Assembly (NCBI GenBank): GCA_903860135.1
Contig: CAIOPG010000004.1
Span: 185,687 to 249,686 of the forward strand
Origin: Candidatus Omnitrophota bacterium
GTDB lineage: Bacteria > Omnitrophota > Gorgyraeia > Zapsychrales > Fredricksoniimonadaceae
Direction: 5' to 3'
Length of the DNA stretch: 64,000 bases
Shown here: one piece after another, positions 1,658 to 20,378 of the stretch
Layout of the letters: each line of letters opens with the position of its first letter
How positions within the stretch are numbered: position 1 is the first letter of the stretch
The notes under the pieces: generated by a model
What the model was told of the DNA's origin: nothing
What the model saw: only the letters and a program-made list of their open reading frames with translations
Databases searched by the model: none
Made by a program: the position numbers and the translations under genes

Positions 1658-1727
1658 ATATTTAATGCACGTTATTGTCTTGGAATTGACAAAGACTGTC
1701 AATGGTTAAAGCCGGATTGTTTCTCGC

Positions 1728-3497
1728 TCACGTCCGCATGAAGTGGCGGTCGAGGAAACTGGCGCGCAATTCGATAAAGACAGGCCGGCCATGAGGGCAG
1801 GTAAAAGGGTTCGCACAGGCCATCAGGGCGCGTACCTGATGCAGGGCTTCCGTATCCTGCATGCGGTCGCCGGCCATGACCGAGGCGCGGCAGGCGCGAC
1901 GGGCCAAAGCATCGTGGTCAGATAAAGGGAAAGGTTCATCGGATAATAAAGCCCGTGCGGCATCCTCAGGGCGCGCCAGCAGGACAGGGGCGGTATGCAG
2001 CGCGATCGTGTCCCTGCCCGCCGCGGTAGTTTCAAAACCAAAAAGAAAAAGACGCTCCCCGGCCTCCTCGAAAACAACCTGTTCGCGCGGAGAAAGTTTC
2101 AATACCAAAGGCACCAGAAGACGCTGGACTTCCACCTTGCCGGCAACAACCTGGGCAGAAAACTTTTCAAAGAGGATCCTTTCCTGGGCGGCATGCTGGT
2201 CGATCACAAACAGGGCATCCCCGTCCTCAAAAAGATGGTAGGTACGGGCAAAAGTGCCGATGAAACGCGCGCGGGCAAGGCGGTCTTTCAACGTGTCTTC
2301 CCGTTCTTCAACGTAACGCGCGGCGAATCCGGGGAACACGCCTTGCGCGGGAACACCCGGCACTGACGGTGATGCAATGCGCGCGGATGATAGGGGCTGA
2401 CTGACGACGGGTAAATCCTCGGGCATGGGGAATAATGGCGTTGCGGGCTCAACAGGCCGGACAGGCCTGCCGGGCGCAAACGGCGCCGCGATCTCCCGCG
2501 CCCCACCCTGGCTCATCAAAAGATGTTCAGCTTGCGCACGCAGCAAGCCGCCCAGGCGGGCTTCCTGCCGGATACGCACCTCACGCTTGGCCGGATGGAT
2601 ATTCACATCCACATCTTCCGGCGGAATATCCAAAAAAATGGCAAACGCAGGATGAACGCCGTCGGGCATGATCATGCGGTACACATCATTGACATGAAAG
2701 AAGATCGCGCGGCTCTGCACCGGGCGGCCATTGACAAAGAGGAACTGCAGGTCGCGGCGCGGGCGCTGGATATTAATATCACCTAAGATCAACCGCACGG
2801 CAAAACCTTCCGCCGATACCGCCTTTTCACCGGCAATAATGTAGCGCTCTTCGAGGTTAAGGGCCGCCGCAAAACGCCCCGCCACCGAGGCTGACACAAG
2901 ATCCAGCAAGGTGCGGCCATTATGGGTCAGCAGGAATGAATGTCCCGGATACAACAACGCGTACGGCAGGACAACATGCAGGACCTGCTCAAGCTCGGCG
3001 GGATCGCTCTTGAGGAATTTCTTGCGGGCAGGCGTATTAAAGAAAAGCTCTTGCACACGCATCTCCGTCCCCTGCTCCGGCATGACCGCCGGGCATGCCG
3101 CCCCTTTCGCCCCGCCGTGCACCTCCATCGCCCAGGCCTCGTCCACACCGGCAACACGGCTTTTGATATGAACCTCTGCCACCGCACCAATGGAATAAAG
3201 CGCTTCACCTCGAAACCCGAGCGAGAGGACATTCTCAAGGTCAGCGGCCGTTGCTATCTTGCTTGTGGCGTGACGCTGGAACAGGAGCGCAAGATCATCC
3301 GGCGCGATCCCCTGACCGTTATCGCGGACATGAATAAGCGTTTTCCCGCCATCTTTAAGATGCACCTCAACGCGCGTGGCACCGGCGTCGAGGGCATTCT
3401 CAACAAGCTCCTTCACGACCGAGGCCGGACGTTCCACCACCTCGCCAGCAGCAATGCGCGCGATCAGCGCCGGTGAAAGAACATGGACAATAGGCAT
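1728..3497 (-). CDS. mutL: DNA mismatch repair protein MutL
   Basis: N-terminal GHKL ATPase motifs IARIAAGEVVERPASVVKELVENALDAGATRVEV. ATG at 3497 (MPIVHV) has AAGGA RBS 9 nt upstream; track start at 3515 is TTG. Immediately downstream of mutS. Confidence 0.9.
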   Translation of the reverse strand: MPIVHVLSPALIARIAAGEVVERPASVVKELVENALDAGATRVEVHLKDGGKTLIHVRDNGQGIAPDDLALLFQRHATSKIATAADLENVLSLGFRGEALYSIGAVAEVHIKSRVAGVDEAWAMEVHGGAKGAACPAVMPEQGTEMRVQELFFNTPARKKFLKSDPAELEQVLHVVLPYALLYPGHSFLLTHNGRTLLDLVSASVAGRFAAALNLEERYIIAGEKAVSAEGFAVRLILGDINIQRPRRDLQFLFVNGRPVQSRAIFFHVNDVYRMIMPDGVHPAFAIFLDIPPEDVDVNIHPAKREVRIRQEARLGGLLRAQAEHLLMSQGGAREIAAPFAPGRPVRPVEPATPLFPMPEDLPVVSQPLSSARIASPSVPGVPAQGVFPGFAARYVEEREDTLKDRLARARFIGTFARTYHLFEDGDALFVIDQHAAQERILFEKFSAQVVAGKVEVQRLLVPLVLKLSPREQVVFEEAGERLFLFGFETTAAGRDTIALHTAPVLLARPEDAARALLSDEPFPLSDHDALARRACRASVMAGDRMQDTEALHQVRALMACANPFTCPHGRPVFIELRASFLDRHFMRT

Positions 3498-3511
3498 AAG
3501 GCAAATCCTTC

Positions 3512-6052
3512 TCAAGCAACCAGTTTTTTAAGTTCATTCAACTTCGCAAGAGCAGCCAACGGTGTCATGGTGTTCACATCCAGCCCGGCAACCTCTAGGG
3601 CCAAAGCCGCATGGCGAGGGTCTTCACCCTTCGCTGAAGAAAAAAGATCAGGTTCTGCGTTAGCCGGCTTCGCGCCACGCAAGCGCTCCCTCAGGGCCCC
3701 GTCGCGTTCCAATCCGGCGAGTATTTTCTTCGCACGATGGACCACCGCCACCGGCATCCCGGCGAGTGTCGCCACGTAGATCCCGTAACTGTCATCCGTA
3801 CCTCCGGGAACGATCTTGTGCAGAAAAATGATCTTGTCTCCCCATTCCCGCACCGCGACATTGTAATTCTTCACCCCGCGGTACTGGTCAGCCAGAAGGG
3901 TCAACTCATGAAAATGTGTCGCAAAGAAAGTGCGGGCCTTTTTCTCGGCCAAAAATTCCGCCAGTGCCCAGGCCAGCGCCAAACCGTCGTACGTCGACGT
4001 GCCACGCCCGACCTCATCAAGGATCACAAGGCTTTGGGGTGTCAAATTATTAAGGATATCCGCCGCCTCGGTCATCTCGACCATGAACGTGCTTTGCCCC
4101 CGGGCGATCTCATCATGCGCACCGATGCGCGTGAAGATCTTGTCCACCACGCCGATCCGCGCCAGTGAAGCCGGGATGAAACTGCCTGTCTGCGCCAGGA
4201 TGACCAGAAGGGCATTCTGACGGATATATGTTGATTTACCCGCCATATTAGGGCCGGTCAGGATGATCAGATGCTCGCCGGTGCGGTCCATGCGCGTGTC
4301 ATTGGGGATAAACTCCGCCGGGCGCAAAGCCTCAACCACCGGATGCCGCCCGTCAGAAATAAAGAGCTCGTCACCATCGGTAACCTGCGGGCGGATATAA
4401 CCACGGCGCGATGCCAGCAAGCTCAGGCTGTAAAGAACGTCGATCATGGCCAGTTCCCGGCAATACTGATGCAGGGCCGCCGCCTGGGCAATGATACCGG
4501 CCGTCAGTTCCTTCATGAGCGCCGCCTCGATGCGCAAAACCTTTTCTTCGGCGGAAAGAACCCGTTGTTCAAACTCCTTTAATTCAGGCGTGATGTAACG
4601 TTCGCCGTTGGCAAGGGTCTGCTTGCGCTGATAATCCGGCGGCACAGCCTTCACATTGGCCTGCGTGATCTCAATGTAATAACCAAACACCCGGTTAAAC
4701 CCGACCTTGAGCGAATTGATCCCTGTCCGGCGAACTTCCTGCGCTTGATATGCGGCCAGCCAGGCGCGCCCGCCTTCTTGCAGGTCTTTCAGGGCATCGA
4801 GTTCTGCGTTGTAACCCCGGGCAATGACCTTGCCCTCGTTCTTGGCCAATGGCATCTGGGGATCAATGGCACGCTCCAGTTGTTCTCTCAGCGCAGGCAT
4901 ATCCGCCAGCACCAGGAACTGGCTTCTCCCGTCAAAAGGCAACAAGGCCGCGCGCAATTCTGGTCCGCGGCATAGTGCCTGGCGCACCACCAGCAGGTCT
5001 TTGGGCGCCGCGCAATTACAGCTCAAGCGTGATAAACTTTTTTCGACATCCGGGATATTTCTAAGAAGCCTTCCGCCGAGGTCGGAACCCAGACTGGGAT
5101 TTTCCAGCACAAGCGCCACCGCATCCTGCCGTGCCCTGATCTTCAGCACATCCTTTAAAGGATGATACAACCAGAAACGCATGGCCCGTCGCCCCATGGG
5201 CGTCAGCGTCCGGTCAATATTCTTTAACAAGGCCTCCATCTCAAGGCCGTGATGCGCGGCCGGTGCGATGAACACATATTCCCCGTCGTCATAAAGCGCG
5301 ATGCGGTCCACATGCGCCAGGGGCACCTTGTTCATCTCGCGCAGGTATTCCAGCAAGGCACCCGCAGCCGCCTGCGCCAGTGGCAAATCTTCAATGCCAA
5401 ACCCGCGCAGGGAATGGGTGCCGAAATGAGCACACACGGTGGCATACGCCCGCGCGCTGGCGAACGACCAATCGCGAAACGGTGTCATGACCGTATCCTT
5501 GAGCCTCAAGAGCGGATGGGCAAAAATATCAGGCTTTGCCTCTTCCGGGAACACACATTCGTTCAACCGCAGTTTCGCGAGCGCTTCCAACGTACGCGAA
5601 GCCGAGAACTGATTAACAAGGATCGCCCCGGTGGCCGTATCCGTGAACGCCAGGCCATACTGCTTGCCGTCGGAAACGATCGCCGCGATATGCCGGGCCT
5701 CAGAGGCCTCATCCAGATAAGTCCCCGCCGTTATGATCCGCACGACCTCGCGCCGGACAAGCCCCTTGGCCAGCACCGGATCCTCAACCTGCTCACAGAT
5801 CGCCACCTTCTTCCCGGCCTTCACGAGGCGGGCAATGTAATTGTCTGCGGAATGATACGGCACCCCGCACATGGGCACGCGTTTTTCGCCTGTGCCGCGT
5901 GATGTCAGGACAAGGTCCAATATGGCAGAAGCTTCGTGCGCATCGTCATAAAACATCTCATAAAAATCACCGAGCCGGAAAAAAAGGATACACTCCTTGT
6001 GACGTGACTTGATCTCGGCATACTGCTTTTGCATCGGCGTGGCGTTGTCCAT
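3512..6052 (-). CDS. mutS: DNA mismatch repair protein MutS
   Basis: 846 aa. N-terminal mismatch-binding region MQKQYAEIKSRHKECILFFRLGDFYEMFYDDA. Walker A GPNMAGKSTYIRQ. Typical MutS length and order with mutL. Confidence 0.95.
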   Translation of the reverse strand: MDNATPMQKQYAEIKSRHKECILFFRLGDFYEMFYDDAHEASAILDLVLTSRGTGEKRVPMCGVPYHSADNYIARLVKAGKKVAICEQVEDPVLAKGLVRREVVRIITAGTYLDEASEARHIAAIVSDGKQYGLAFTDTATGAILVNQFSASRTLEALAKLRLNECVFPEEAKPDIFAHPLLRLKDTVMTPFRDWSFASARAYATVCAHFGTHSLRGFGIEDLPLAQAAAGALLEYLREMNKVPLAHVDRIALYDDGEYVFIAPAAHHGLEMEALLKNIDRTLTPMGRRAMRFWLYHPLKDVLKIRARQDAVALVLENPSLGSDLGGRLLRNIPDVEKSLSRLSCNCAAPKDLLVVRQALCRGPELRAALLPFDGRSQFLVLADMPALREQLERAIDPQMPLAKNEGKVIARGYNAELDALKDLQEGGRAWLAAYQAQEVRRTGINSLKVGFNRVFGYYIEITQANVKAVPPDYQRKQTLANGERYITPELKEFEQRVLSAEEKVLRIEAALMKELTAGIIAQAAALHQYCRELAMIDVLYSLSLLASRRGYIRPQVTDGDELFISDGRHPVVEALRPAEFIPNDTRMDRTGEHLIILTGPNMAGKSTYIRQNALLVILAQTGSFIPASLARIGVVDKIFTRIGAHDEIARGQSTFMVEMTEAADILNNLTPQSLVILDEVGRGTSTYDGLALAWALAEFLAEKKARTFFATHFHELTLLADQYRGVKNYNVAVREWGDKIIFLHKIVPGGTDDSYGIYVATLAGMPVAVVHRAKKILAGLERDGALRERLRGAKPANAEPDLFSSAKGEDPRHAALALEVAGLDVNTMTPLAALAKLNELKKLVA

Positions 6053-6199
6053 GGTGCATTGTTATAGCATAATAATGCCATGGAGAAAACCAATATCCAT
6101 CCCTTCCTTCAGCCCTCTTTTATAAAAAAACAATATTTTTAAACCTGAACAGGTTATATTGTGTAAATATATATAAAAATTAATAGCATACGAGGCGAT

Positions 6200-7204
6200 A
6201 TGAAAAAATCATTCTTCCTGTTTTCCTTTTTATGTTTCAGCCTGACCAGCTTCACCGGTCCTGTTTCCAGTGCCGAAACAACAAAAACCAATGCCCCGGA
6301 TAATAAAGCCGCGGCCACGATCAAACCACGCAAATACACGCTGAACATCATGGAATTGACCAACGCTCAAAATTACCGTTATGGCCGGGAAATGTTCCTG
6401 ACCGGCAACTACCCGGAAGCCGTGCGCACCTTCAGGGAGATCCTGCGCCTCGACTGCCGCAACAGGCTCGCGCAATACCACCTGATGAAGATCGCCTCCA
6501 TGGACCCTGACTACAGCTATCTGCTGGACGAACTGAAACACCTGCCGTGTACCGCCTATGATTTTGTCAAAGAAGATTTTTTGCCCGCCTCCATTTATTA
6601 CGAAAAAGATACCGACATCCTCCTCGCCCAGATCATTGCTTACAATAAACGCCAGCGCCTGACTGAGAGCGAAATGAAGACCCAAGCCGGGAAATACAAC
6701 GACCTGGTCGCAGGTCTCGAAGCCAGGATCACCAACCTGACCGGAGACAACCCCAGAAAGCTGTCTGCCGCCGCCAGAGCCGCCCAGCTTCTTAAAGATG
6801 AACGCGCCGCCCGCAAGGCCGAGAAATATATCGTTTACCTCAAGGAGGAAGTTTCCTCCGACCGCATGAGCCAACAGAAAAATCTTCAAGACATGCGCAC
6901 CCGGCTGTCAGCGGCAGACAATTCGATCAGTGAAACCGGCGAAGACGGCGCGGCCGCCATGACCGAACCTCATTCCCCCAAAGCACTGTCGCTGATGGAA
7001 GCCATCGCCAAAGCCAGAGCTGAACTTGAAGGCAAGGAAAAAGCCTTTGCCAGGAAAGATATCGATCTCGCCAGCTTGCAAGCGCGTTTCAATGATATCC
7101 TGCACCGCCTGAAGATCATCCAGAAAACGATTGCAGAAAAGAACAGCCAGATCAAGTCCCTTGAAAACAACCTTCAATCCATCCAGGACCGCTCTAAATT
7201 ATGA
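6200..7204 (+). CDS. Secreted coiled-coil protein, hypothetical
   Basis: Signal peptide MKKSFFLFSFLCFSLTSFTGPVSSA. GAGG RBS 5-8 nt upstream of ATG. Long heptad-like, charged, Q/K/E-rich C-terminal half. ATGA overlap with next gene. Confidence 0.6.
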   Translation: MKKSFFLFSFLCFSLTSFTGPVSSAETTKTNAPDNKAAATIKPRKYTLNIMELTNAQNYRYGREMFLTGNYPEAVRTFREILRLDCRNRLAQYHLMKIASMDPDYSYLLDELKHLPCTAYDFVKEDFLPASIYYEKDTDILLAQIIAYNKRQRLTESEMKTQAGKYNDLVAGLEARITNLTGDNPRKLSAAARAAQLLKDERAARKAEKYIVYLKEEVSSDRMSQQKNLQDMRTRLSAADNSISETGEDGAAAMTEPHSPKALSLMEAIAKARAELEGKEKAFARKDIDLASLQARFNDILHRLKIIQKTIAEKNSQIKSLENNLQSIQDRSKL

Positions 7205-9558
7205 AAAGAAAAATCCTGATCTCTTTCCTGTGCGCTGTTTTTTGCCTGACACAAAATCTGCCTGTTTTCGCCCAGGACCCTGTTGCCACCAATAAAGAAT
7301 TAGTGGGGCTGGAACAGCTCGCCACGGACATCACCACGGCCAAGGACGCCATTAAAAGCTATCAGAACAACGAAAAAGACCTTACCAACATGATCCGCGA
7401 CCTCATCACAGAGAACGACGCGCTTTACACGTCGCTTTCCAAACGTTCGCGTGAAGTCGCCGAACTGCGCGCCAAATTCTACGGCATCCCCTATAACCAA
7501 GCTTACAACAAAGCCATGACGGATATGCCACCTGACCGCGTTCCCCAGCGCTTGCATCCTGATGATGATACACTACCGGTTCCCGTGCCCATGATCGACC
7601 TCGAAACCCCAACGATCGTTACCAACGACCCTGTCTCTGGGAAGAACAGGCAGGAGATCGACGATCTCATCGCCGACATTGCCATACTTCATCAAGCAAA
7701 GAACACCTCACGCAATCCTCAGGCTCTAGCTGACAAGAAAGCTGAAGCTTCCCTGCAGGCTAAAAAAGAAATGCTCCTGCTTGAAATACAAACATTGTCT
7801 GAAAAACAAGAACGCCTGACCGAAAAACAAAAATCCACTGAGGTCAAGATCAAAGAAAAAGTCGATAATCTCCAGGATCTGGAAGCCCCTAAGAAAACAG
7901 CCGAAAGCCATCCAGCCAAAGCAGTGCCAGCTCCGAAGAAAGAACCTGAAAGCCGCACCTCCAAAACTGTCCCATCTTCAAGAAAAGAACCTGAAAGCCG
8001 CACCACCCAAGCCATACCAACACCAAAGAAAACAGCTGAAGTCCAGCCTGTCAAAGTGCCACGCCCGACCAAGAAAGCCATTGAAACACTGCAAGTCAGA
8101 AAGAACACGCTGGTTAAAAAAGTGGCGACATTATCCGAGAAACAAAAGAGCCTCATCCGGGAACAAACCCCCGCTGTCAAAATCGCCGAAGCGAAACACA
8201 ACAGCAACGATACGGTCGGATCCCTACTGCAAGCCAAGAAAGACCGCCTGATCCAGGAAATCAGAAAAATCTCCGAAGAACAGCTCATCATTACCGCTCG
8301 ACAAAATGCAGGTAGCCACCAAACCGTCGTTGCGCCTATACCTTCCCAAAAAGAGCCTGCCCGAAGCTTACAGGCCAAGAAAGACCTTCTGACTGAAAAG
8401 ACCAAGTCTCTGGCTGAAAAACAACACAGCCTTGTCGCCCTGAAGCAAGAGTTAACCACGATCAACAAAGGCTTAAAGAACGCCAACAACCGTTATCTGG
8501 AAGCGATCAACAAGATCGACAACTATTATCGGGATATCAAAGGGGAAGTCTCGGGAAAGAACTACGTCCGCCAAACAATGTTCGCCAATCTGCTCAAGGA
8601 TTACACTCAGAAAACAAAAGAAGCCAACATGATCTGGAGTGCCGTCCGTAGCCGCGACAAGACCCTCCAGCAATTCAAGATGAAACTCGCCGAGCAAAAC
8701 ACCCGCATCAAAAACATCGATGACAATATGCTTGCCATGGATATTCAACTGGGCACTTACAAGGCAATGCTAACGCAATACAGGAACGAACTCGAACGCC
8801 GCGCCACGCTGATCCGAGACCAGAAAAAACTCCTCGACATGACCGACCAGAAACTGACAGAGGCTTCCACAAAAGTTTCCGTCATCGAAAAGACCCTCGA
8901 AGAAAGTAATGCCGCGCTCACCCGTATGCCGACCGGGATAGACCGCATCAGGCAAATGCTCATCCGGAAAGACAAAGCCATCAAAAAAATAAATGAAACC
9001 ATCAACCTCCGGCAAGAACACAATACCGGCAAGATCAACACCCTTAAAGATCAGGTCTTTGTCCAAACTGCCCACGCCGAAAAGCTAGTCGCTGAGAATG
9101 CGGAGATCACCGGACGCCTTGACACCAGCAGGAAAGAATTGGAAACTGCCAACGAACGCATCCGTTTCCTCGAACGCAGCCTCGAAAATATGGTCATCCG
9201 GTTGAAAGCCAACCGTATCCCCGTCGCCGCTCCGTCGACCAAAGATCTCGATGACAAGATCATGGATCTGGAAGCCAAGCTTGACCGTAAAGAAGTCCAG
9301 CTCGAAGAAGCCCGGACAAGGATATTCGACCTCACCCACCAGCCCAACACCCCGGCACCCGTCATCAAGCCAACAGCACCCCTAAGTCCGGCGGCTGAAG
9401 ATGCGCTCGCCCGCGCACGCATTACTGTGGCCGAACTGACAGCCAAACTTGAAAGCAACCTCGCCGAGATCGGCCGGTTGAAAGAACTGCTGGGCATTAA
9501 AGAAAAAGAATACCCGCAGACAAAGAAACCCTCAGGCCAGGTCGCGCAAAAACCTTGA
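7201..9558 (+). CDS. Secreted coiled-coil repeat protein, hypothetical
   Basis: Signal peptide MKRKILISFLCAVFCLTQNLPVFAQDP. Four copies of an LQAKK..L...SEKQ motif. Duplicated KKEPESRT segment (21-bp direct repeat near 7939 and 7984). Highly charged coiled-coil throughout. Confidence 0.6.
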   Translation: MKRKILISFLCAVFCLTQNLPVFAQDPVATNKELVGLEQLATDITTAKDAIKSYQNNEKDLTNMIRDLITENDALYTSLSKRSREVAELRAKFYGIPYNQAYNKAMTDMPPDRVPQRLHPDDDTLPVPVPMIDLETPTIVTNDPVSGKNRQEIDDLIADIAILHQAKNTSRNPQALADKKAEASLQAKKEMLLLEIQTLSEKQERLTEKQKSTEVKIKEKVDNLQDLEAPKKTAESHPAKAVPAPKKEPESRTSKTVPSSRKEPESRTTQAIPTPKKTAEVQPVKVPRPTKKAIETLQVRKNTLVKKVATLSEKQKSLIREQTPAVKIAEAKHNSNDTVGSLLQAKKDRLIQEIRKISEEQLIITARQNAGSHQTVVAPIPSQKEPARSLQAKKDLLTEKTKSLAEKQHSLVALKQELTTINKGLKNANNRYLEAINKIDNYYRDIKGEVSGKNYVRQTMFANLLKDYTQKTKEANMIWSAVRSRDKTLQQFKMKLAEQNTRIKNIDDNMLAMDIQLGTYKAMLTQYRNELERRATLIRDQKKLLDMTDQKLTEASTKVSVIEKTLEESNAALTRMPTGIDRIRQMLIRKDKAIKKINETINLRQEHNTGKINTLKDQVFVQTAHAEKLVAENAEITGRLDTSRKELETANERIRFLERSLENMVIRLKANRIPVAAPSTKDLDDKIMDLEAKLDRKEVQLEEARTRIFDLTHQPNTPAPVIKPTAPLSPAAEDALARARITVAELTAKLESNLAEIGRLKELLGIKEKEYPQTKKPSGQVAQKP

Positions 9559-10617
9559 TTTCCACAGGATCTCGGACCACTCCCCTTGCGGGGTTGAATC
9601 AATGACGATCCCTCCGCCGACACCCATAGCTCCCTGCGCACCATCGAGAAGAATGGTGCGTATGGGGACATTAAAATAAAGATCCCGCTGCGGTGTGATC
9701 CAGCCTATCGCGCCTGTATAAATATGCCGCGGCAACGGCTCCAAGCCCTGGATAAGCCCCATGGCTTTCACCTTGGGCACCCCCGTCACTGATCCCGACG
9801 GAAAAAGCGCGTGGAAGATAGCGCTGAACGGCAGGTTCACCGGAACCCGCGCGGTCACTGTCGATGTCATCTGAAAGATCGTCCTATACCCCGCCACCTC
9901 AAAAAGTTCCGGCACCCGCACCGTATCCCCGATGCGGCCAAGGTCATTGCGTAACAGATCCGCGATCATGACATTCTCGGCCCGATTCTTGGGGTCATGG
10001 TGCAGGCATAGCCCGCCGAACATATCGCGCCAACCTTCCCTGGGCCATGAGCCTTTCATGGGTTTCACCGTCATCCGGGCCCCTTCTTTCCTGAGGAACA
10101 TCTCGGGTGATAAAGAAAGGATAACGTGCCGGTCTGTTTCAATGTACGCCGGATATGGCACCGGCTGCCGCGTAAGGAGCGCCCTGTACAAGCTGTAAGC
10201 TGAACCTTTGAAGGAAAAAAGCCACGGCAGGCAATAGGTGATCTGATACACATCACCGGCCCGGATATATTCATGGATGCTATGGATGCCGCGGGTATAG
10301 GCATCGCGTGATATCCCGGGGGCAAGCCCCTCAACACGAAAAGATCCCCGTGTGTCCAACGGACGCTGGCGGCTGAAGGCCTTAAATACCCCCATCTGCA
10401 TCAGCGGAAACCCGTTGGCGGCCAAAGGTTTTACGCCTGTGGCAAAAGCATGCCCGGCTTCATAGGAAAGAAAGCCCGCCGCATAATAACCCTCGGCAAT
10501 GGCCCGCTCGAGGCGGTCAAAACAGCCCGAAAGTTCCGACGGCACCAAACAAGTGATAATTTCCCGGGGATGTTCAAAATAAAGAGGTTTGTTCTCAAAT
10601 TCAAAGAGTACCCGCAT
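9532..10617 (-). CDS. pabB: Chorismate-binding enzyme, aminodeoxychorismate synthase component I-like (PabB/TrpE family)
   Basis: 361 aa. Chorismate-binding domain motifs GDVYQITYCLP and PSGSVTGVPKVKAMGLIQGLE. folC nearby. Lacks the N-terminal regulatory domain, so assignment within the family is tentative. Confidence 0.7.
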   Translation of the reverse strand: MRVLFEFENKPLYFEHPREIITCLVPSELSGCFDRLERAIAEGYYAAGFLSYEAGHAFATGVKPLAANGFPLMQMGVFKAFSRQRPLDTRGSFRVEGLAPGISRDAYTRGIHSIHEYIRAGDVYQITYCLPWLFSFKGSAYSLYRALLTRQPVPYPAYIETDRHVILSLSPEMFLRKEGARMTVKPMKGSWPREGWRDMFGGLCLHHDPKNRAENVMIADLLRNDLGRIGDTVRVPELFEVAGYRTIFQMTSTVTARVPVNLPFSAIFHALFPSGSVTGVPKVKAMGLIQGLEPLPRHIYTGAIGWITPQRDLYFNVPIRTILLDGAQGAMGVGGGIVIDSTPQGEWSEILWKSRFLRDLA

Positions 10618-10738
10618 GAAACACCTTTCCCGTTAGGGTCTGGATGTTCCACAACAGTGAAACTAGGGCATGACCTGGCGTTTGGAAGACACGTACGCAA
10701 TACCGAGCCACGGATAGCCCGATATTTAGAATGCGTTA

Positions 10739-11128
10739 TTAATGAATAAACTCAAAATTCTTATTATCTTTCAAGCCCTTATCGAAAGTATACGTTTTCA
10801 GGTTCCTGGATCCGCCGATCTCGCCGATCAAGGCATCATTAAACGTGTACCCTTTCGCACATTTAGAGATAGCCAACCGAACCGAAGTTTCATATTCAAA
10901 GCAAAATTGTGGCACTTTTAACAGATCTTCAAAAGAGTTCAAGACACTTTCCTTGGGTAAGCCATATTTCTTGGTAAGCACAAAATACGTTTCGATCAAA
11001 ACGCCATAGCAGATAAATATTTCCCTAGAGCCGTAGCTTTCGATCAGGGTCAGTGCTTTTTTCACCCGGGCTTCATCATCAACGGCAACAATTCTGACAA
11101 GAATGTTCGTGTCCAAGGCGATCTTCAT
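10739..11128 (-). CDS. vapC: PIN-domain ribonuclease toxin (VapC family)
   Basis: MKIALDTNILVR... PIN N-terminal acidic motif. ATG at 11128 overlaps the antitoxin stop (ATGA), a typical type II TA arrangement. Confidence 0.75.
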   Translation of the reverse strand: MKIALDTNILVRIVAVDDEARVKKALTLIESYGSREIFICYGVLIETYFVLTKKYGLPKESVLNSFEDLLKVPQFCFEYETSVRLAISKCAKGYTFNDALIGEIGGSRNLKTYTFDKGLKDNKNFEFIH

Positions 11129-11382
11129 TTGCTCTCGCTTTCCTGCCATGCTTCGGTGCGCGCATTGCGGATCTCATCGTCGGTAAATTTCTTTGAGGTA
11201 TGCCCGCGATGTTTATTAACAAAATCGCTAATTGTAAATTTCTCGGCCTGGGGCTTCACTTCCATGTGCCCATTTCTTTCTTCAAAGACCAGCTGATCGC
11301 CCGGGTTCAACTTTAAGCGAAGCATGACCTTTAAGGGAACTGTAACCTGTCTTTTAGATGAAATCTTGGCTGCGGTGATCAT
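11125..11382 (-). CDS. AbrB/MazE-type (SpoVT-AbrB fold) antitoxin
   Basis: MITAAKISSKRQVTVPLKVMLRLKLNPGDQLVF swapped-hairpin motif. ATG at 11382 with GGAGG RBS 6 nt upstream. The track ORF is artificially extended to 11562. Confidence 0.7.
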   Translation of the reverse strand: MITAAKISSKRQVTVPLKVMLRLKLNPGDQLVFEERNGHMEVKPQAEKFTISDFVNKHRGHTSKKFTDDEIRNARTEAWQESESK

Positions 11383-11589
11383 TTCCCCTCCTTCATTGTT
11401 GTGATAACAATATATCTTTGTTCTCACAACAAATATACCATGCTCTCGGCCCTTAGCAAGGATCATTTCAAGAATATGTTTAGCGGGTGCCTCTGATTGA
11501 CACCCTCCTCCGCGAGCGAAGCGAGTGTGGGGGGCATGGGAGGGGGCGTCAAATAATAACAAAAAGTTTTTGCATGACTGGAAGAACGG

Positions 11590-11760
11590 CTGTTTGATTT
11601 CACGACGACTGCTTATAAGAATAAGAATTTACAACGGCTATCGAAACGCTTCGTTCAATCATGGCGAGATATGTTCCGGTTCCTGAAAGATCCGTCGCTA
11701 GACTGGAATAATAATCGTGCCGAAAGAATGATCAGGCCAAATGTTATTGGCTCTTTACAT
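11590..11760 (+). mobile_element. IS66-family transposase (TnpC) C-terminal fragment; remnant, no intact ORF
   Basis: Plus-frame translation ...SWRDMFRFLKDPSLDWNNNRAERMIRPNVIGS matches the conserved IS66 TnpC block (FL.D..L..NN.AER..RP...GRKNWLF). No upstream transposase body and no downstream continuation. Confidence 0.5.
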
Positions 11761-11781
11761 GCGTACCCATGCGTGTGTCGT

Positions 11782-12912
11782 CTAATGGTCATTTCCCATA
11801 ATATAGCTCGTACTTCTACCGCCGGCAGTTTCTTTCTGAAGGATCCCTTTTTCAACAAGATCAAGAATATCACGGAGCGACGTGTCATGGGAACACTTCG
11901 TGATCTTCGCCCATTTAGAAGACGTTAATTTACCTTCAAATCCATCAAGCAGTTTGTTTGCCATCAAACGCTGACGCTCATTCATCGAACTCTCTGCATG
12001 TCTTTCCCAAAAGCGTGCTTTACGAAAAACCACCGCCAGGATAGTTTCTGTACCGACGAGCGTACGATCAAGACATTCCAAATACCACTTAAGCCAAAGT
12101 GTGATGTCAATCCCAGCCCCCATTGTTTCACGGCCGATGCCCTTCTGTGTCTTTTCAAGAATATCATAATACGCAGCATGCTCCTTACGGATCTGCGAAG
12201 ACATACTATAAAACCGCTGCGAACTGCCGTCAGCCCGAGCGAGCTGCATATCCATTATGGCCCGTGCGATACGCCCATTCCCATCATCAAACGGATGAAT
12301 CGTGACAAACCATAAATGGGCGATTCCGGCCACAATCACCGGATCGACATCACTGTGTGTTTCAAACCAGTCAAGAAACCTCTTCATCTCATCATTGATA
12401 CGGACAGCTTCGGGCGCTTGAAAATGCACACGCTCACGGCCAATAGGCCCCGACACAACGGTCATGGGACCATGGCGATCATCACGCCAGGCACCAACCC
12501 CGATCTTAGCAAGCCCACTATGCCCGCTGGGAAATAGTGCCGCGTGCCAAGCAAACAGGCGCTTTCGCGTGAGTGGCTTCTTAAAATTCTGGGTAGCATC
12601 AAGCATCATCTCAACCACCCCGTCCACATGGCGATCAGAAGACCCAAGCCCGGCAATATCCATCCCTAGCCTGCGCGCCACGGATGACCGAACCTGTTTA
12701 GGATCAAGAATAACCCCTTCGATCTCGCTACTCTTTATAACATCCATCGTCAACGTCTCAAGCATCGCCTCGGCGCGTAGAGAAAACCCTAACGCTTCCA
12801 TGCGTCCCATTAATCGCCCTTGGCGATTGCGGACAACGCCCAGCAATGTCGGGATCTGTTTGTGATCCCAGTTAAACTTTGGCCAACTTTCAAGCTGATG
12901 AATAAATTGCAT
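11782..12912 (-). CDS. Fic/DOC family protein, class II (N-terminal DUF4172-like region, FIC domain, C-terminal wHTH)
   Basis: Canonical FIC motif HPFDDGNGRIARA. N-terminal inhibitory-helix motif SSEIEG ([ST]xxxEG). 376 aa, typical of this subfamily. Confidence 0.85.
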   Translation of the reverse strand: MQFIHQLESWPKFNWDHKQIPTLLGVVRNRQGRLMGRMEALGFSLRAEAMLETLTMDVIKSSEIEGVILDPKQVRSSVARRLGMDIAGLGSSDRHVDGVVEMMLDATQNFKKPLTRKRLFAWHAALFPSGHSGLAKIGVGAWRDDRHGPMTVVSGPIGRERVHFQAPEAVRINDEMKRFLDWFETHSDVDPVIVAGIAHLWFVTIHPFDDGNGRIARAIMDMQLARADGSSQRFYSMSSQIRKEHAAYYDILEKTQKGIGRETMGAGIDITLWLKWYLECLDRTLVGTETILAVVFRKARFWERHAESSMNERQRLMANKLLDGFEGKLTSSKWAKITKCSHDTSLRDILDLVEKGILQKETAGGRSTSYIMGNDH

Positions 12913-13062
12913 ATTTTACACCCTGTATGCGATGAATAACCAGTCTAATCTACGCACATCTTGCGTTGAATATAACACATATTCTACGCATGAACAAGAA
13001 TATCCCAACCTTAAGTCTACTCAACGGGTAACATTGTTCAATGAGTCAACGACCTCGTGTCA

Positions 13063-13100
13063 CCAAAAAAACAACCGGATATTATCACTGTATCCGGTTG
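13063..13100 (-). terminator. Rho-independent terminator downstream of the VapB-like gene
   Basis: 9-bp stem caaccggat/atccggttg (13072-13080 / 13092-13100) with an 11-nt loop. On the minus strand it is followed by TTTTTTT (complement of 13064-13070). Confidence 0.55.
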
Positions 13101-13211
13101 TCTCTGATCCTATTATCCAATTAAGAAGTAATAGCCAGTGCTAAATCTCAGTTTATGCGTAAGGATTAATGACTTATAAAGCGGGACACACTATTTTTCT
13201 CTTATCACCCA

Positions 13212-13409
13212 TTACCTGCTCCTTGAGCGTCGCACATCAATCTCAAGGGGCATCCGCCCTTTCAAGGCCATAAGCCTGTCGATCCGGCTTTTGCGAACAA
13301 CCTCTTGTAACCCAAGGACGATCGTCGCTGTCTTCGTCTTCGTCTTCATCCCGCTGGCATGCATCGCATCAGCCATTATTTCATCAGGAATATCAATCGT
13401 TGTTCTCAT
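13212..13409 (-). CDS. VapB-like type II antitoxin, apparently orphan
   Basis: MRTTIDIPDEIMADAMHASGMKTKTKTATIVLGLQEVV...RLMALKGRMPLEIDV resembles MRTT...-type antitoxins. GAGGAGG RBS 8 nt upstream of ATG at 13409. No PIN toxin ORF downstream before the terminator. Confidence 0.5.
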   Translation of the reverse strand: MRTTIDIPDEIMADAMHASGMKTKTKTATIVLGLQEVVRKSRIDRLMALKGRMPLEIDVRRSRSR

Positions 13410-13499
13410 GATCATTGCCTCCTCATGCCTAAAGAATAAATTATTCTTATGCCTTATGGAAAGAATTGGGACACGCTACGGGCGGACAGCCGTTCGCCC

Positions 13500-14876
13500 T
13501 TACTTCCCGATACAAAACTTCGCAAAAATATGATCGATGACATCAGCGTCGACATGGCGTCCGGTGATGGCGTCGAGGGCATTGACCGCGGCCTTAATGT
13601 CCTCGGCGGAAAATTCCAGGGGATCGCCTTGAAGCGCGGCATGCTTTGCCCGTTGAAGGGCCTCTTTTGCCCCTTGCAGGGCCTCGGCATGGCGCGCGTC
13701 ATTGACCAGCACCCCGCGCGCCTCAACGGCCGCATCGCCGGTGGCCATGCGCACCATGGCCCTCCGTAATTCATCCATGCCGTCACGCCGGAGCGCTGAA
13801 ACCTTGGGGCTTCCTTCGAACACGTCATGCCCCAGACCTGAAGGCAGATCCGCTTTATTCAACACCATGATCCGGCGCGGATGGCTGATCCCGGCGATTA
13901 AAGCACGATCCGTCTCATCCAAAGGGCAACTCTGGTCGAGAACACACAAGACGATATCCGCCGACGCGATCGCCTCACGCGAGCGGCGCACAGCTTCTTC
14001 TTCGACCTTGTCGCGCGGCACCAGGATCCCCGCCGTATCCACAAGATTAACGGGGATACCGTCGATGTTGACACATTCTTCGATGACATCGCGCGTCGTC
14101 CCGGCCACATCGGTTACGATCGCGCGCGGCGCGCGTAGAAGCGCGTTAAGCAACGACGACTTGCCCACATTAGGTTTACCGCAAATAACCACCCGGATGC
14201 CTTCCTTGAGGATCCGCCCGCGCGGCGCCGTCGAAAGCAATGCGTCAAGGCGTGTCAGGATCAGCGCCATATCGCGCACCACCTTTCCGGCCTGACCGGC
14301 ATCGGTGTCCTCTTCCGGAAAATTAAGGAGCGCTTCGATCCCGCCGAGGACACCCAGCAGCATCGCGCGCAACGTTTCAAGCTCGACGGAGAGATCGCCC
14401 TTCAATTGGCGTTCCACCGCCCGGACCCCGGCCTCGGTCCGCGCCGTGATGATATCCAGCACCGCTTCAGCCTGGGCCAGATCGATGCGCCCGTTCAGGA
14501 AAGCCCTTTTGGTAAATTCCCCCGGCGCCGCCAGCCGCGCGCCGGCCTGCAAGCAATGGTTCAAGATCAGGCGGATGACGGCCGGGCCGCCATGCCCGCT
14601 GATCTCTGCCACATCCTCGCACGTATAACTTTTGGGTCCCGGCATCCATGCCACCAAGACCTCATCGATGACATCTCCGGCCTCGGCCTTGATCCAGCCG
14701 TAATGGATGCTGTATGCCCGCCATTCCGACGGAGCGCCACAAGACTTCCCGGTAAAAATACGGCTCACGACACCGGCGGTGTCCTTGCCGCTCACCCGCA
14801 CGATTCCCACGCCGCCGGAACCTGCCGGTGTGATGATCGCCGCGATCGTGTCATCTTCCCCTTTATACTGATACAT
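13500..14876 (-). CDS. mnmE: tRNA modification GTPase MnmE
   Basis: G1 motif GKPNVGKSSLLNAL. C-terminal FCIGK. N-terminal DTIAAIITP. ATG at 14876 (GGAGG upstream) overlaps the folC 3' end by about 14 nt. Confidence 0.9.
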   Translation of the reverse strand: MYQYKGEDDTIAAIITPAGSGGVGIVRVSGKDTAGVVSRIFTGKSCGAPSEWRAYSIHYGWIKAEAGDVIDEVLVAWMPGPKSYTCEDVAEISGHGGPAVIRLILNHCLQAGARLAAPGEFTKRAFLNGRIDLAQAEAVLDIITARTEAGVRAVERQLKGDLSVELETLRAMLLGVLGGIEALLNFPEEDTDAGQAGKVVRDMALILTRLDALLSTAPRGRILKEGIRVVICGKPNVGKSSLLNALLRAPRAIVTDVAGTTRDVIEECVNIDGIPVNLVDTAGILVPRDKVEEEAVRRSREAIASADIVLCVLDQSCPLDETDRALIAGISHPRRIMVLNKADLPSGLGHDVFEGSPKVSALRRDGMDELRRAMVRMATGDAAVEARGVLVNDARHAEALQGAKEALQRAKHAALQGDPLEFSAEDIKAAVNALDAITGRHVDADVIDHIFAKFCIGK

Positions 14877-16215
14877 ACGCCCGCGCCTCCGCACCTACAA
14901 AAAGAGAGCCTGTCACAATCACAAGCCCCGCACTGCCCGCCGCACGCCGGGCTTCATCAACAGCCTCTGCCACACATTTTATCTTCGTCAGCGGTATCCC
15001 CGGCAGAACAGCTCCAATATCCGTCGAAGACAGGTCAGCCGCCCGCGGATGATCCGCCCGCGTCAGGATCATGGCCTGAGTGATCGGGGCAAGAACTTTG
15101 ATCACCGCCCCCGCATCCTTGTCAGCACTCATCCCCACAACAATGATCGCCTTACGCCCGGGATACGCCTGCTGCAGTGTCGCCACCAGCGACCACGCTG
15201 ATTCCACGGTGTGCGCCCCGTCGATGATCACAATCGGGTCAACCGCAACGCGTTCAAACCGCACCGGCCACCGCACATCTTTAACGCCCGCGCGCACCGC
15301 ATCTTCCGTCAGCAGAAACCCGAACATCTCCAGGTCTTCGGCCATGGCGATCGCCAACGCCGCATTCTGCGCCTGATGCGCGCCGGTCAGCGGCGACTCA
15401 AGCCCTCCGTACAACCGCCGCCCCTGCACATCAAAAACCACCTTATCCGGCAGAACCTTCTCGATATGGCAAATGACATCCTGCCCGATCAACGACGGCA
15501 TGATATTGAAATCCCGACAGCGCGCCGCAAGGACCGTCAAGGCTTCTGCCGGCTGAGGCGCCAGGGCAACCCGCTGATATGTTTCTTTTATAATACCGGC
15601 CTTTTCCGCCGCGATCGCCCCCAGCGTCTCCCCCAGAATATGCATATGATCAAAGCCAATGGGAGTGATGCCGCACACCGATGCCTCAAACACATTCGTC
15701 GCATCGAGCCTGCCGCCCAAACCGGTCTCAAGCACCACGATCTCGACCTCCCGCTGCACAAAATACGCCACGGCCAGCGCCGTGATCAATTCATAAAAAG
15801 TGACGCCCACCCCGGCGGCACGCAAGCCCTCAATAGCCTCCCGGTAATACTGAACCAGTTGCTCCAGCTGGCCAGCCGTGATGCTGTCATCAAACAAATC
15901 CTCCGCCGCCGGAGCTGCCATGACCTCCGCGTCGAGCACCCGTATCCGTTCACGCACATCATAAAGATGCGGCGACGTATAAAGCCCCACCTGATAGCCC
16001 TCAGCACGCAGGATCGACGCCAGAAAAGCGGCCGTGGATCCCTTGCCCTTGGTACCGGCAATGTGGGCAAAACGCAAACGCGCCTCTGGATGACCGAAGG
16101 CAGCAAGAAGCCGCTCCATGCGTTCCAGAGAGAACGCCGCCGGAGCGGCCTGTTGCAGTTTCGATTCCCAATTGAGGAATGTTTTAAAATAGTCGTCGAA
16201 TGCAAACGACGCCAT
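14863..16215 (-). CDS. folC: Bifunctional folylpolyglutamate synthase/dihydrofolate synthase
   Basis: Mur ligase family P-loop HIAGTKGKGSTAAFLASIL. About 450 aa. Position between purH and mnmE. Confidence 0.85.
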   Translation of the reverse strand: MASFAFDDYFKTFLNWESKLQQAAPAAFSLERMERLLAAFGHPEARLRFAHIAGTKGKGSTAAFLASILRAEGYQVGLYTSPHLYDVRERIRVLDAEVMAAPAAEDLFDDSITAGQLEQLVQYYREAIEGLRAAGVGVTFYELITALAVAYFVQREVEIVVLETGLGGRLDATNVFEASVCGITPIGFDHMHILGETLGAIAAEKAGIIKETYQRVALAPQPAEALTVLAARCRDFNIMPSLIGQDVICHIEKVLPDKVVFDVQGRRLYGGLESPLTGAHQAQNAALAIAMAEDLEMFGFLLTEDAVRAGVKDVRWPVRFERVAVDPIVIIDGAHTVESAWSLVATLQQAYPGRKAIIVVGMSADKDAGAVIKVLAPITQAMILTRADHPRAADLSSTDIGAVLPGIPLTKIKCVAEAVDEARRAAGSAGLVIVTGSLFVGAEARAYVSV

Positions 16216-16220
16216 ACCGC

Positions 16221-17777
<1,557 letters not shown>

Positions 17778-17857
17778 AACAACCTCATATAAATTTATTG
17801 AATGTACGCACCAGAAGCTGAAGGCATGCCGTAAGCTTCATTAATTACATATTTAAT

Positions 17858-17895
17858 ATTAAAAGAAAAACGCCGCTCCGTATGCCAGAGCGGCG
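17858..17895 (-). terminator. Rho-independent terminator of rpsU
   Basis: GC stem cgccgctc/gagcggcg (17871-17878 / 17888-17895) with a 9-nt loop. On the minus strand it is followed by TTTTTCTTTT. Confidence 0.6.
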
Positions 17896-17908
17896 TTGAT
17901 AGCAACAC

Positions 17909-18066
17909 TTAGATCCGCTTGCCCTTCTTGCGCTTGCGCTCGGAAGGTTTGGCGTAAAAACGACGCTCCTTCAATTCGACAAGAAACCCGTCGCGCTGGC
18001 ACTGCTTCTTGAACTGGCGCAGGGCCTTTTCAAACCCGTTCTTGTCGCTGATCTTGACTTCGACCA
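17909..18066 (-). CDS. rpsU: 30S ribosomal protein S21
   Basis: Hand translation: MVEVKISDKNGFEKALRQFKKQCQRDGFLVELKERRFYAKPSERKRKKGKRI. 52 aa, so below the ORF-track cutoff. Basic C-terminus and RRFYEKP-like motif typical of bS21. Confidence 0.8.
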
Positions 18067-18326
18067 TATAAAATTCACCCGCCCTTCACACCATGATATG
18101 GTGCTTGAATTAAAAAATTATACCTTTACGCGTAAAATCCGCTCCAAAACCACAATATTTTCCCAAAAAAGATGTGTTATGGTAGCACAAAGGCTAGCTT
18201 ACGTCAAATGCCTTGAAACCCGCGCCGGGATGTCCAGGGACGAGGTTGATGAAATTATTCCTCTGCGCGCAACACCACGGAACGGTTTAAAGCCGTTCCC
18301 TACAGCATAATGTAAAACATGGGACT

Positions 18327-19037
18327 TTATCCATTAACCCCGAACAAAGCCCCTGCGGCGGCTGTTACGGCCATGGATATGGCACCCCAGAAAACAATGC
18401 GGATGATGGCCCTGGTCATAGGCGCGCCGCCGATGAACGCTCCGGCAGCGCCGAAGCCGGCGAGAAAAACAAGTGTGGCGCCGAAAACAAGGCTGATCAC
18501 CCAGGCCCCTGGGGTAAGAAGCGCCACCAAAAGCGGCAGGATGCCGCCGATGGCAAACGATGCGGCCGACGCCAGCGCGGCTTGTACCGGACGAGCAGTG
18601 GTGATATGGGAAATGCCGAGTTCATCGCGCGCATGCGCCGCCAGGGCGTCATGGGCTGTCAATTGCCGGGCCACCTGCACGGCAAGATCCGGGTCAAGGC
18701 CGCGCCCACGGTAAATGGATGCCAGCTCCTCCAGCTCCTCCTCCGGCCCCTCCTCAAGTTCCCGGCGCTCCCGGGCCAGATCAGCGCGTTCTGTATCCGC
18801 CTGCGAACTGACCGAGACATATTCACCGGCGGCCATGGACATCGCCCCGGCGATCAACCCCGCCACACCGCTCACCAGGATCACACTGCGCGGCGCATGC
18901 GCGGCCGAAATACCGACCACCAGGCTGGCCACCGACAAAAGACCATCGTTGGCACCCAAGACAGCGGCACGCAACCACCCGATCCGGTCCGTCCGGTGCC
19001 TTTCAATGTTGCTTTTGATAACCATATCCACCCCCAT
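18327..19037 (-). CDS. VIT1/CCC1 family (DUF125) membrane protein, putative Fe/Mn transporter
   Basis: N-terminal LRAAVLGANDGLLSVASLVVG motif and a hydrophobic C-terminal half are characteristic of VIT-family proteins. Confidence 0.75.
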   Translation of the reverse strand: MGVDMVIKSNIERHRTDRIGWLRAAVLGANDGLLSVASLVVGISAAHAPRSVILVSGVAGLIAGAMSMAAGEYVSVSSQADTERADLARERRELEEGPEEELEELASIYRGRGLDPDLAVQVARQLTAHDALAAHARDELGISHITTARPVQAALASAASFAIGGILPLLVALLTPGAWVISLVFGATLVFLAGFGAAGAFIGGAPMTRAIIRIVFWGAISMAVTAAAGALFGVNG

Positions 19038-19100
19038 TGCCCGCGCGTGTTACGGCCTTTTCGCCTCAGCCTTCACCTGCGTTGTCTATCAACAAAGCCA

Positions 19101-20378
19101 TTAAAACGAAAATGTTTTCCTGAGCAACGCCCACAGCGGTGACAGCAACATCATGCCGGTCAAGGCGATCAGAACGATCGTTGTCGCCCAGCCGACGAAG
19201 TTCTGAAACTTGTTATTCACATAAGTTCCCATGACATACGGGCTGTTGACCATGTAGATCATGGACAATAACACGACCGGCAACAGCATGGCATTGATGA
19301 CCTGCGTCCAAATGGTGATCGCGATCAAAGGCGCGTTCGGCCAGAGGATGATCCCCACCGCCACCGCAATAATGCTTCCAAAAAGCCAGTAAAATTGCGG
19401 TGCCTCATCGACCCGCTTGTCGATGCCGGCCTCAAAACCAAAGGCCTCGCACACATAGAACGCCGTCGCCAGAGGCAGGATCGTCGCCGAGAAGGCGGAA
19501 GCGATAAAAAGCCCGAACGCAAAAACCTGTGACGCCAGGACCCCGGCAAAAGGCTGAAGTGCCAGCGCGGCATCGCTCGCTTCTTTGATCACCACGCCGT
19601 TCTTGTTCAACGTCGCCGCGCAGGCGATCATGATGAAGAAAGCCACCACAATAGTCGCGGTACAGCCGATCACCACATCAATGAGCGCGAACTTGTAATC
19701 CTTGATCGTGATGCCCTTTTCAATGACCGCTGACTGCATGTAAAACTGCATCCAGGGCGCGATCGTCGTCCCGATGATGCCAAGCACAATGCTCAGGTAT
19801 TCCCCGCCAAATTGCGCCCGGGGATGGATGATCGCGGCACCGACCTCGTGCCAGTCGGGTTTGGCCATGACCGCAGAAATGATATAAAAAAGCAGGCAGA
19901 AACTGAAGAACAGGAATATCCGCTCGGCGATCTTGTAATTCCCCTTGGTCGCCAGCACCCACACCGCCGCCGCTGTGAGCGGCACCGAAAGGTACTTGCT
20001 GACCCCGAAGATCGCCATACTGCCCGCCACCCCCGCGAATTCCGTGGCTGTATTGCCGATATCAGCCACAATAAGACCGAGGAAAATGAAAGCCGTGACC
20101 TTAACACCGAAATTCTCGCGGATCAGATCCGCCAGCCCCTTGCCGGTGATAACCCCCATGCGCAGGTTCATTTCCTGGATGACCAAAAGGGCAACGAAAG
20201 CAGGTCCCAGCGTCCACAGGAGATTATACCCGTACAGCGCGCCCGCCACCGAATAGGTCGTGATGCCGCCGGCGTCGTTGTCCACACTGCCGGTGACGAT
20301 GCCCGGCCCCAGGATGGCCAGGAACATCAGGACATTACGCGTCGCCGGGCTGTTCTTTATGTTTTCGATGATGCGCAT
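19101..20378 (-). CDS. NRAMP/SLC11-family transporter with non-canonical metal-site residues
   Basis: About 11 TM helices. ILGPG..SVDNDAGG..AGALYGYNLLW aligns to the TM1 DPGN region (reads D-A-G-G, Asn not conserved). TM6 reads SATILPL where canonical MntH has A..MPH. ATG at 20376-20378, 1 nt after the upstream gene stop. Confidence 0.85.
   Translation of the reverse strand: MRIIENIKNSPATRNVLMFLAILGPGIVTGSVDNDAGGITTYSVAGALYGYNLLWTLGPAFVALLVIQEMNLRMGVITGKGLADLIRENFGVKVTAFIFLGLIVADIGNTATEFAGVAGSMAIFGVSKYLSVPLTAAAVWVLATKGNYKIAERIFLFFSFCLLFYIISAVMAKPDWHEVGAAIIHPRAQFGGEYLSIVLGIIGTTIAPWMQFYMQSAVIEKGITIKDYKFALIDVVIGCTATIVVAFFIMIACAATLNKNGVVIKEASDAALALQPFAGVLASQVFAFGLFIASAFSATILPLATAFYVCEAFGFEAGIDKRVDEAPQFYWLFGSIIAVAVGIILWPNAPLIAITIWTQVINAMLLPVVLLSMIYMVNSPYVMGTYVNNKFQNFVGWATTIVLIALTGMMLLSPLWALLRKTFSF

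Follow-up and report, generated by a model that had tools for sequence, protein, structure and literature searches.

A probable mosaic islet of toxin-antitoxin, Fic and transposase-derived modules between mnmE and pabB in an Omnitrophota bacterium

CbFic2 of Coxiella burnetii (CBU_0822) is a class II Fic protein in which a DUF4172 domain, the Fic core and a C-terminal winged helix-turn-helix (HTH) follow one another, and whose AMPylation and deAMPylation are enhanced when it binds DNA and are under the control of dimerization (PMC10628234). A second class II Fic protein, SoFic/Sofic (Shewanella oneidensis, E. coli H397), forms a single-gene anti-phage system, and an E. coli Sofic is reported to be counteracted by AS1, a protein of 47 amino acids (aa) encoded downstream of the Sofic gene (PMC12249575). 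VapBC-type toxin-antitoxin (TA) modules with an AbrB-fold antitoxin and a PIN toxin, solitary antitoxin genes, and core-gene hotspots of defence and accessory cargo are the other described systems closest to the locus reported here. This locus is a 2.8-kb islet between the core genes mnmE and pabB in a 64,000-nt stretch (hereafter, the window) of Candidatus Omnitrophota bacterium assembly GCA_903860135.1, contig CAIOPG010000004.1. With a probability of roughly 0.8, we read it as a mosaic accessory islet of four separately built modules, i.e., an orphan vapB, a class II Fic gene, a dead IS66 fragment and an AbrB-PIN operon, located at a recurrent hotspot. Specifically, modules would be exchanged by recombination through the conserved flanks, and the IS66 scrap would record an old transposition. 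The islet, its contents and its two edge genes are as follows.

13500-14876, minus strand: mnmE, the core gene at one edge (NCBIfam MnmE equivalog 382 bits, cutoff 380; guanine-plus-cytosine (GC) content 0.608)
10678-13499, no strand assigned: the whole inserted islet, 2.8 kb (homology breakpoints and GC)
13212-13409, minus strand: orphan VapB-type antitoxin, 65 aa, or 67 aa from the start at 13415 (Pfam PF09957 E 1e-7; PDB VapB11 E 0.02)
13065-13101, minus strand: intrinsic terminator downstream of vapB, with an 11-bp core stem, a 9-nt loop and a short U run (-21.8 kcal/mol)
12913-12999, minus strand: upstream region apparently moving together with the Fic gene (blastn match to ~4904-5000 of Fic locus L128; promoter-like site at 13008-12981 by promoter scan)
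11782-12912, minus strand: class II Fic protein, 376 aa, with DUF4172, Fic core and C-terminal winged HTH (Pfam DUF4172 E 1e-31, Fic E 3e-16)
11578-11751, plus strand: IS66-family transposase remnant, 58 codons, cut at both ends (Pfam DDE_Tnp_IS66 34.6 bits, cutoff 23.1, E 1.8e-8)
11459-11432, minus strand: promoter-like site (promoter scan) overlapping a 15-nt inverted repeat, 11396-11410 / 11418-11432 (93% complementary; fold z -3.0)
11125-11382, minus strand: AbrB/SpoVT/MazE-fold antitoxin, 85 aa (Pfam MazE_antitoxin E 2e-5, exactly at the gathering score; NCBIfam AbrB domain E 6e-6, below cutoff)
10739-11128, minus strand: PIN-domain (VapC-type) toxin, 129 aa (Pfam PIN E 4e-10)
9532-10617, minus strand: PabB-like chorismate-binding enzyme, the core gene at the other edge (Pfam Chorismate_bind E 1e-71; GC 0.556)

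The minus strand carries all genes from folC to pabB, the IS66 fragment alone being on the plus strand, and the order of transcription is folC, mnmE, vapB, a 299-nt spacer, Fic, a 399-nt stretch with the IS66 fragment, the AbrB antitoxin, PIN, a 121-nt spacer and pabB. All islet genes belong to well-known families, and the value of the locus lies in its setting: a tiny and precisely delimited spacer between core genes, in the poorly studied phylum Omnitrophota, for which five species with an empty site and two with cargo are available.

To delimit the islet, we used relatives obtained by a protein search with PabB, which yielded a graded series of identities, and compared their contigs; scans with MnmE of genome and metagenome collections returned one related species only. 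Blastn homology to contigs L008, L122, L125 and L126 stops at 13500, the edge of the mnmE stop codon (13500-13502), and homology to relatives picks up again at 10677 on the pabB side. Because these are the breakpoints, the islet corresponds to 10678-13499, while the distance from breakpoint to breakpoint is only ~12-45 nt in the empty-site genomes. An earlier note on this DNA had placed inserted cargo between pabB and mnmE at 10739-13415, from open reading frames (ORFs): the location holds, with slightly wider limits, and every feature that the note listed was recovered on the strand it gave, at or within a few bases of its positions. mnmE and pabB are adjacent in 5/5 related Omnitrophota species, listed here by contig.

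L122-L124: pabB identity 71%, pabB directly after mnmE
L125: pabB identity 66%, pabB directly after mnmE
L126: pabB identity 63%, pabB directly after mnmE
L134: pabB identity 62%, pabB directly after mnmE
L135: pabB identity 58%, pabB directly after mnmE

Where their contigs extend far enough, these empty-site relatives also share the wider gene order of the window. The GC content of the islet (10677-13499) is 0.462 versus 0.556-0.608 in the flanking genes pabB, folC and mnmE, and that of individual modules spans 0.38-0.51. At the level of sequence, synteny and sharp breakpoints establish that the islet was inserted between mnmE and pabB and what its modules are. The same genes standing at this locus as an ancestral state in relatives, the observation that the earlier note had singled out as contrary to insertion, were not encountered, the site being empty in all five species.

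The sister species, metagenome-assembled genome (MAG) ELA167 (GCA_037141995.1), shares 81% MnmE and 80% PabB identity with the window and is represented at this locus by contigs L008 and L119. Following mnmE, L008 carries an AbiEi/AbiEii pair (11488-12973), and, before pabB, L119 carries (32-6581) a 924-aa unknown ORF, a PDC-S13-like protein (291 aa; PADLOC PDC-S13 E 9e-115; also matching a type I specificity-subunit model), RelE with an HTH partner, and a Phd-like antitoxin with a PIN protein. This cargo totals >8 kb over the two unjoined contigs and showed no similarity to the cargo of the window by tblastx or blastp. The pabB-proximal PIN pair of ELA167, considered as an orthologue of the window's PIN pair, was likewise rejected, with no blastp or tblastx similarity between them. 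On the pabB side, the junction in ELA167 lies at the same point as in the window, i.e., at the 5' end of a conserved pabB leader (see below). By sequence comparison, the sister MAG has different cargo both beside mnmE and beside pabB. With what appears to be unrelated TA and defence cargo at the site in this species, the mnmE-pabB spacer looks like a recurrent hotspot, where modules come and go. It resembles described core-gene hotspots in its fixed position, in the different TA and defence cargo of a sister species and in being empty in others, but differs from them in its size of only 2.8 kb, in having neither integrase nor tRNA, and in the number of known sites, i.e., two occupied and five empty species.

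Several observations weigh against a mosaic islet at a hotspot. L008 and L119 were tested for a join and did not overlap, and we infer from their common MAG that they flank one islet. No empty-site variant of the window's own species was found. The independence of the modules was examined in two Fic contexts and two VapB contexts. Signals of mobility were sought, with no tRNA in 5000-20000, no integrase domain by Pfam and no IS ends; a flanking direct repeat seen by eye at both junctions, CGTA(G)CGTGTC(TT)CCAA, was discarded, as its local-alignment score is attained in 12% of shuffles. Finally, the activities of all the encoded proteins are predicted from homology, and the match of the Fic protein to the PADLOC SoFic model (E 7.9e-41, profile positions 17-350 of 361) is no proof of a defence role, the score against the NCBIfam SoFic equivalog being 42 bits for a cutoff of 550.

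The strongest competing explanation is a single delivery of the four modules by one mobile element (e.g., a small integrative element or a composite transposon based on IS66), which then lost its transposase, its ends and vapC. An IS66 DDE fragment does lie inside the islet, every module has a lower GC content than the flanks, and the islet boundaries are sharp. However, a single delivery is at odds with the uneven GC content of the modules, with the separate occurrence of Fic and vapB homologues elsewhere, and with a sister species that has different cargo beside the same two genes; contig breaks of other assemblies near module junctions further hint at modules occurring in more than one context. 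In addition, neither terminal inverted repeats nor a target duplication survive, the best flanking repeat being the one that shuffled sequences match in 12% of cases. We therefore regard a single element as improbable. The earlier note had proposed horizontal acquisition followed by decay: the insertion is supported, but the evidence favours a mosaic built at a hotspot over one acquisition event.

The IS66 fragment itself is a dead remnant and not an element; a complete transposase, the accessory genes tnpA/tnpB, terminal inverted repeats and an 8-bp target duplication are all missing. It covers positions 213-269 of 284 in the DDE_Tnp_IS66 profile, as an in-frame translation of 58-64 aa, while its 27-aa ORF by itself falls below threshold (E 2.4e-4), and tblastn of the fragment against plasmids returned annotated IS66 transposases only. 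It lies on the strand opposite to all other islet genes and ends 30 nt from the Fic stop codon. The piece had been described as about 50 codons of the C-terminus of IS66 TnpC; an IS66 scrap it is, of 58 codons, but from the distal DDE domain and not from the end of the protein. No second IS66 copy was found in the window, and a repeat search detected no terminal inverted repeats bracketing either the fragment or the islet. For a mosaic islet, we suggest acquisition by recombination through the flanking core genes, together with an old IS66 event.

The largest module is the Fic gene, which encodes a Fic motif, HPFDDGNGRIAR, at residues 206-217 (H206; 12262-12297) that fits the HxFx(D/E)GNGRxxR consensus. 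Its inhibitory motif, SSEIEG (residues 61-66, E65; 12715-12732), lies N-terminal to the Fic core on the same polypeptide, and the protein is assigned to class II because it includes an inhibitory motif of its own. The match to CbFic2 (PDB 8CIL) is full length (E 6e-89, residues 3-370), with the same domain order, a near-identical Fic motif (HPFDDGNGRIAR here, HPFDDGNGRIGR in CbFic2) and an inhibitory motif at a corresponding position (TSAIEG, residues 62-67, in CbFic2). The biological settings differ, however: CbFic2, from an intracellular pathogen, has been investigated as a possible effector acting on histone H3, while the islet protein belongs to a free-living or epibiotic Omnitrophota and stands in a TA/defence islet. 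With SoFic/Sofic, it shares class II membership, an N-terminal inhibitory helix, a C-terminal domain, the PADLOC model match and surrounding TA modules, but direct similarity to SoFic structures is weak (E 3e-6) and no conserved AS1-like small gene lies downstream. Since the NCBIfam SoFic equivalog score is far below cutoff, we filed the protein, on sequence grounds, as a CbFic2-like class II Fic and defence candidate and not as a SoFic orthologue. Of the earlier proposal of a class II Fic protein of AMPylator/phosphocholinase type, the class and the two intact motifs stand, whereas a phosphocholinase activity finds no support, the closest characterized relatives, CbFic2 and SoFic, being AMPylases. 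Its own inhibitory glutamate, E65, would restrain this putative AMPylase, which plausibly works as a conditional toxin or defends the cell through abortive infection.

In the two contexts examined (L127 and L128), Fic homologues (73-74% identity) are solitary, with unrelated genes around them. Blastn homology to L128 is confined to the gene and ~87 nt upstream, and downstream of Fic nothing is conserved with L127 or L128. A 46-aa ORF at 11463-11603 on the minus strand was considered as an AS1-like gene and rejected, for it shows no conservation with either locus. The region upstream of Fic also has a 70-nt match in inverted orientation in the second Fic locus, L127 (~4630-4700). This conserved upstream stretch may be a palindromic operator for the winged HTH domain. 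At least 8000 CbFic2/SoFic-type relatives occur in Omnitrophota metagenomes at E ≤ 1e-30, many of them near 70% identity, and the islet places this abundant family in a TA/defence context.

On the mnmE side of Fic, vapB appears as an antitoxin gene separated from its toxin. An antitoxin without cognate toxin had been predicted here, and the comparison with paired loci agrees: for each of the two VapB homologues examined (83% and 77% identity), a 134-aa PIN protein follows immediately, and DNA homology with these paired loci begins 23 nt before the vapB start and stops at its stop codon. A degraded PIN gene was sought in 12913-13211 by tblastn with the two cognate PIN proteins at word size 2, and none was found (best E 0.58 in a 670-nt search space). 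The sequence comparison thereby establishes the orphan status of vapB, which resembles described solitary antitoxin genes in that a PF09957 VapB stands alone, in an intact frame, with PIN-paired nearest relatives. A Shine-Dalgarno-like AGGAGG lies upstream of the gene. The terminator previously called after it was found at 13065-13101, where the fold has a z-score of -4.2 and 0/200 shuffles are as stable; an automatic terminator scan overlooked it because its loop exceeds 8 nt, and an Rfam scan at this site gave a sub-threshold SdsR match only. The likely course would be a clean removal of the PIN toxin at the stop codon of vapB with retention of ribosome-binding site and terminator, which would make this a clear example of toxin loss by excision at precisely that point, with the antitoxin left behind.

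The non-synonymous divergence (dN) of vapB is 0.09-0.15 with saturated synonymous divergence (dS), and its amino acid divergence does not exceed that between the two paired copies; vapB either became an orphan recently or remains under selection. We infer that it is a leftover or provides anti-addiction immunity against incoming vapBC modules. That it serves the islet's own PIN toxin is unlikely: considered as its partner, this PIN shows no similarity to the PIN proteins paired with VapB homologues. As a separate observation, the orphan VapB has one KT dipeptide more than its relatives (KTKTKT at 13335-13352 versus KTKTAT), through one added copy of a 6-nt tandem unit.

That the VapB-like protein and Fic instead form a functional TA pair, as in class I FicTA or as reported for EcSofic-AS1, is a very weak prospect. 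Their genes do lie side by side on one strand, and a small protein, AS1, is reported to counteract an E. coli Sofic (PMC12249575), but AS1 is encoded downstream of Sofic and not upstream, and nothing is conserved downstream of the islet Fic gene. Moreover, a strong terminator and 299 nt separate vapB from Fic, no VapB gene adjoins either of the two close Fic homologues, the nearest VapB homologues have PIN partners, and the islet Fic protein, as a member of class II, has an inhibitory motif of its own.

Equally hard to sustain is an islet ancestral to the clade that was cleanly deleted in the relatives lacking it. The two closest genomes, those of the window and ELA167, do both have cargo with a PIN-type pair beside pabB, yet these two pairs have no detectable similarity, the GC content of the islet is unlike that of its flanks, and five successively more distant species are empty, so that at least five precise deletions would be needed; the pabB identities already suggest that the empty-site genomes form an outgroup grade.

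An assembly or binning chimera joining unrelated DNA has a negligible chance of being correct: the contigs of several assemblies do break inside the islet, but the islet is not an assembly chimera because independent assemblies of at least four samples all carry it at 100% identity, with one 85-kb contig of another sample (ERZ27313599, read as two overlapping loci) matching at 100% across the whole islet and shorter contigs from three other samples covering all internal junctions with zero mismatches. Contigs of same-strain assemblies (L002-L007) end inside the islet at 13021, 11719, 11519, 11441, 11112 and 11041, several of these ends being at or near module junctions, and two independent assemblies both stop at 13021, ~22 nt beyond the Fic module. 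Possible causes of such ends are strains that co-exist or individual modules shared with other genomes.

The last module of the mosaic islet, next to pabB, is the AbrB-PIN operon. The predicted pairing of a VapC toxin with an AbrB antitoxin was borne out by the Pfam PIN and MazE_antitoxin matches and by a 4-nt overlap, ATGA, shared by the antitoxin stop and the PIN start, an overlap that gene calls show as well. An alternative PIN start at 11149 would give a 136-aa ORF. Acidic residues occupy 4/4 expected active-site positions (D6, E46, D98 and D116), as a positional reading of the translation and not a structural alignment, and no close solved structure was found for this toxin. The palindrome and the promoter-like site lie just upstream of the antitoxin start, and the palindrome (11396-11432) is a candidate autoregulatory operator. 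The small upstream antitoxin, the 4-nt overlap, the four acidic positions and the palindrome at a promoter-like site are all as in VapBC-type modules. The operon is intact and probably represses itself through the palindrome, and the addiction effect of the predicted module would stabilize the islet.

Immediately outside the islet, a conserved structured leader marks the boundary on the pabB side. This ~60-nt leader stands directly upstream of pabB in 7/7 species, at the following positions.

10618-10677, minus strand: conserved structured pabB leader of the window (alignment, covariation; covariance model 78.8 bits)
L119, 6651-6710: leader in ELA167
L122, 10058-10115: leader
L125, 9943-10000: leader
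L126, 9945-10000: leader
L134, ~1483-1540: leader
L135, ~5947-6000: leader

RNAalifold predicts an outer helix around a hairpin. In the alignment of the seven sequences, 94.5% of cells are paired versus 19-51% after a shift of partners by 1-3 columns, changes on both sides are seen in six pairs, and the covariation score was reached by 0/500 shuffles. The leader includes an invariant ACAYC, and GGTGT is found after the ribosome-binding site, ahead of the start codon; pairing between these two could create a pseudoknot or an alternative fold. The covariance model matches the window once, Rfam scans covering the islet and the leader gave chance-level matches only and no family, and a literature search found no pabB riboswitch. 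With seven related sequences only, the leader is a candidate new cis-regulatory RNA, a lead and not a result. This by-product could nonetheless outweigh the islet itself: if the leader senses a folate-pathway metabolite, it would represent a new class of regulatory RNA.

Since the vapB terminator would cut pabB off from mnmE and a promoter scan of 10618-10738 on the minus strand found no promoter-like site, pabB is probably transcribed mainly by read-through from the TA promoter. A more elaborate scenario would make the spacer a dedicated capture site that swaps TA and defence modules without an integrase while sparing the pabB leader, with the TA promoter driving pabB and thereby coupling para-aminobenzoic acid (PABA) and folate synthesis to TA autoregulation, and with the orphan VapB kept as immunity against incoming vapBC modules; we consider this combination doubtful.

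In the window, the islet belongs to a wider gene order of gidA, S21, purH, folC, mnmE, pabB, a large coiled-coil ORF, mutS, mutL and a secretin gene. For the PabB-like enzyme, the top NCBIfam matches are PabB equivalogs, every one of them below its cutoff. The gene preceding mnmE and the large ORF beyond pabB are located as follows.

14863-16215, minus strand: folC (GC 0.589)
7201-9558, plus strand: 785-aa protein with no Pfam match, coiled-coil-rich by eye, with repeated PKKEPESRT-like units

This 785-aa ORF and pabB overlap at their 3' ends by 27 nt. Every relative examined has a counterpart (649-911 aa) convergent with pabB, and these counterparts have no Pfam matches except for one faint ATG16 match in L134. 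Between folC and mnmE, L125 carries a 1169-aa ORF without Pfam match (5033-8542), which is a second variable spot of the same gene cluster. Further along the window, at 17800-18400, the GC content dips again to 0.45-0.47 and then climbs sharply to 0.66, and this dip may correspond to another accessory or intergenic segment.

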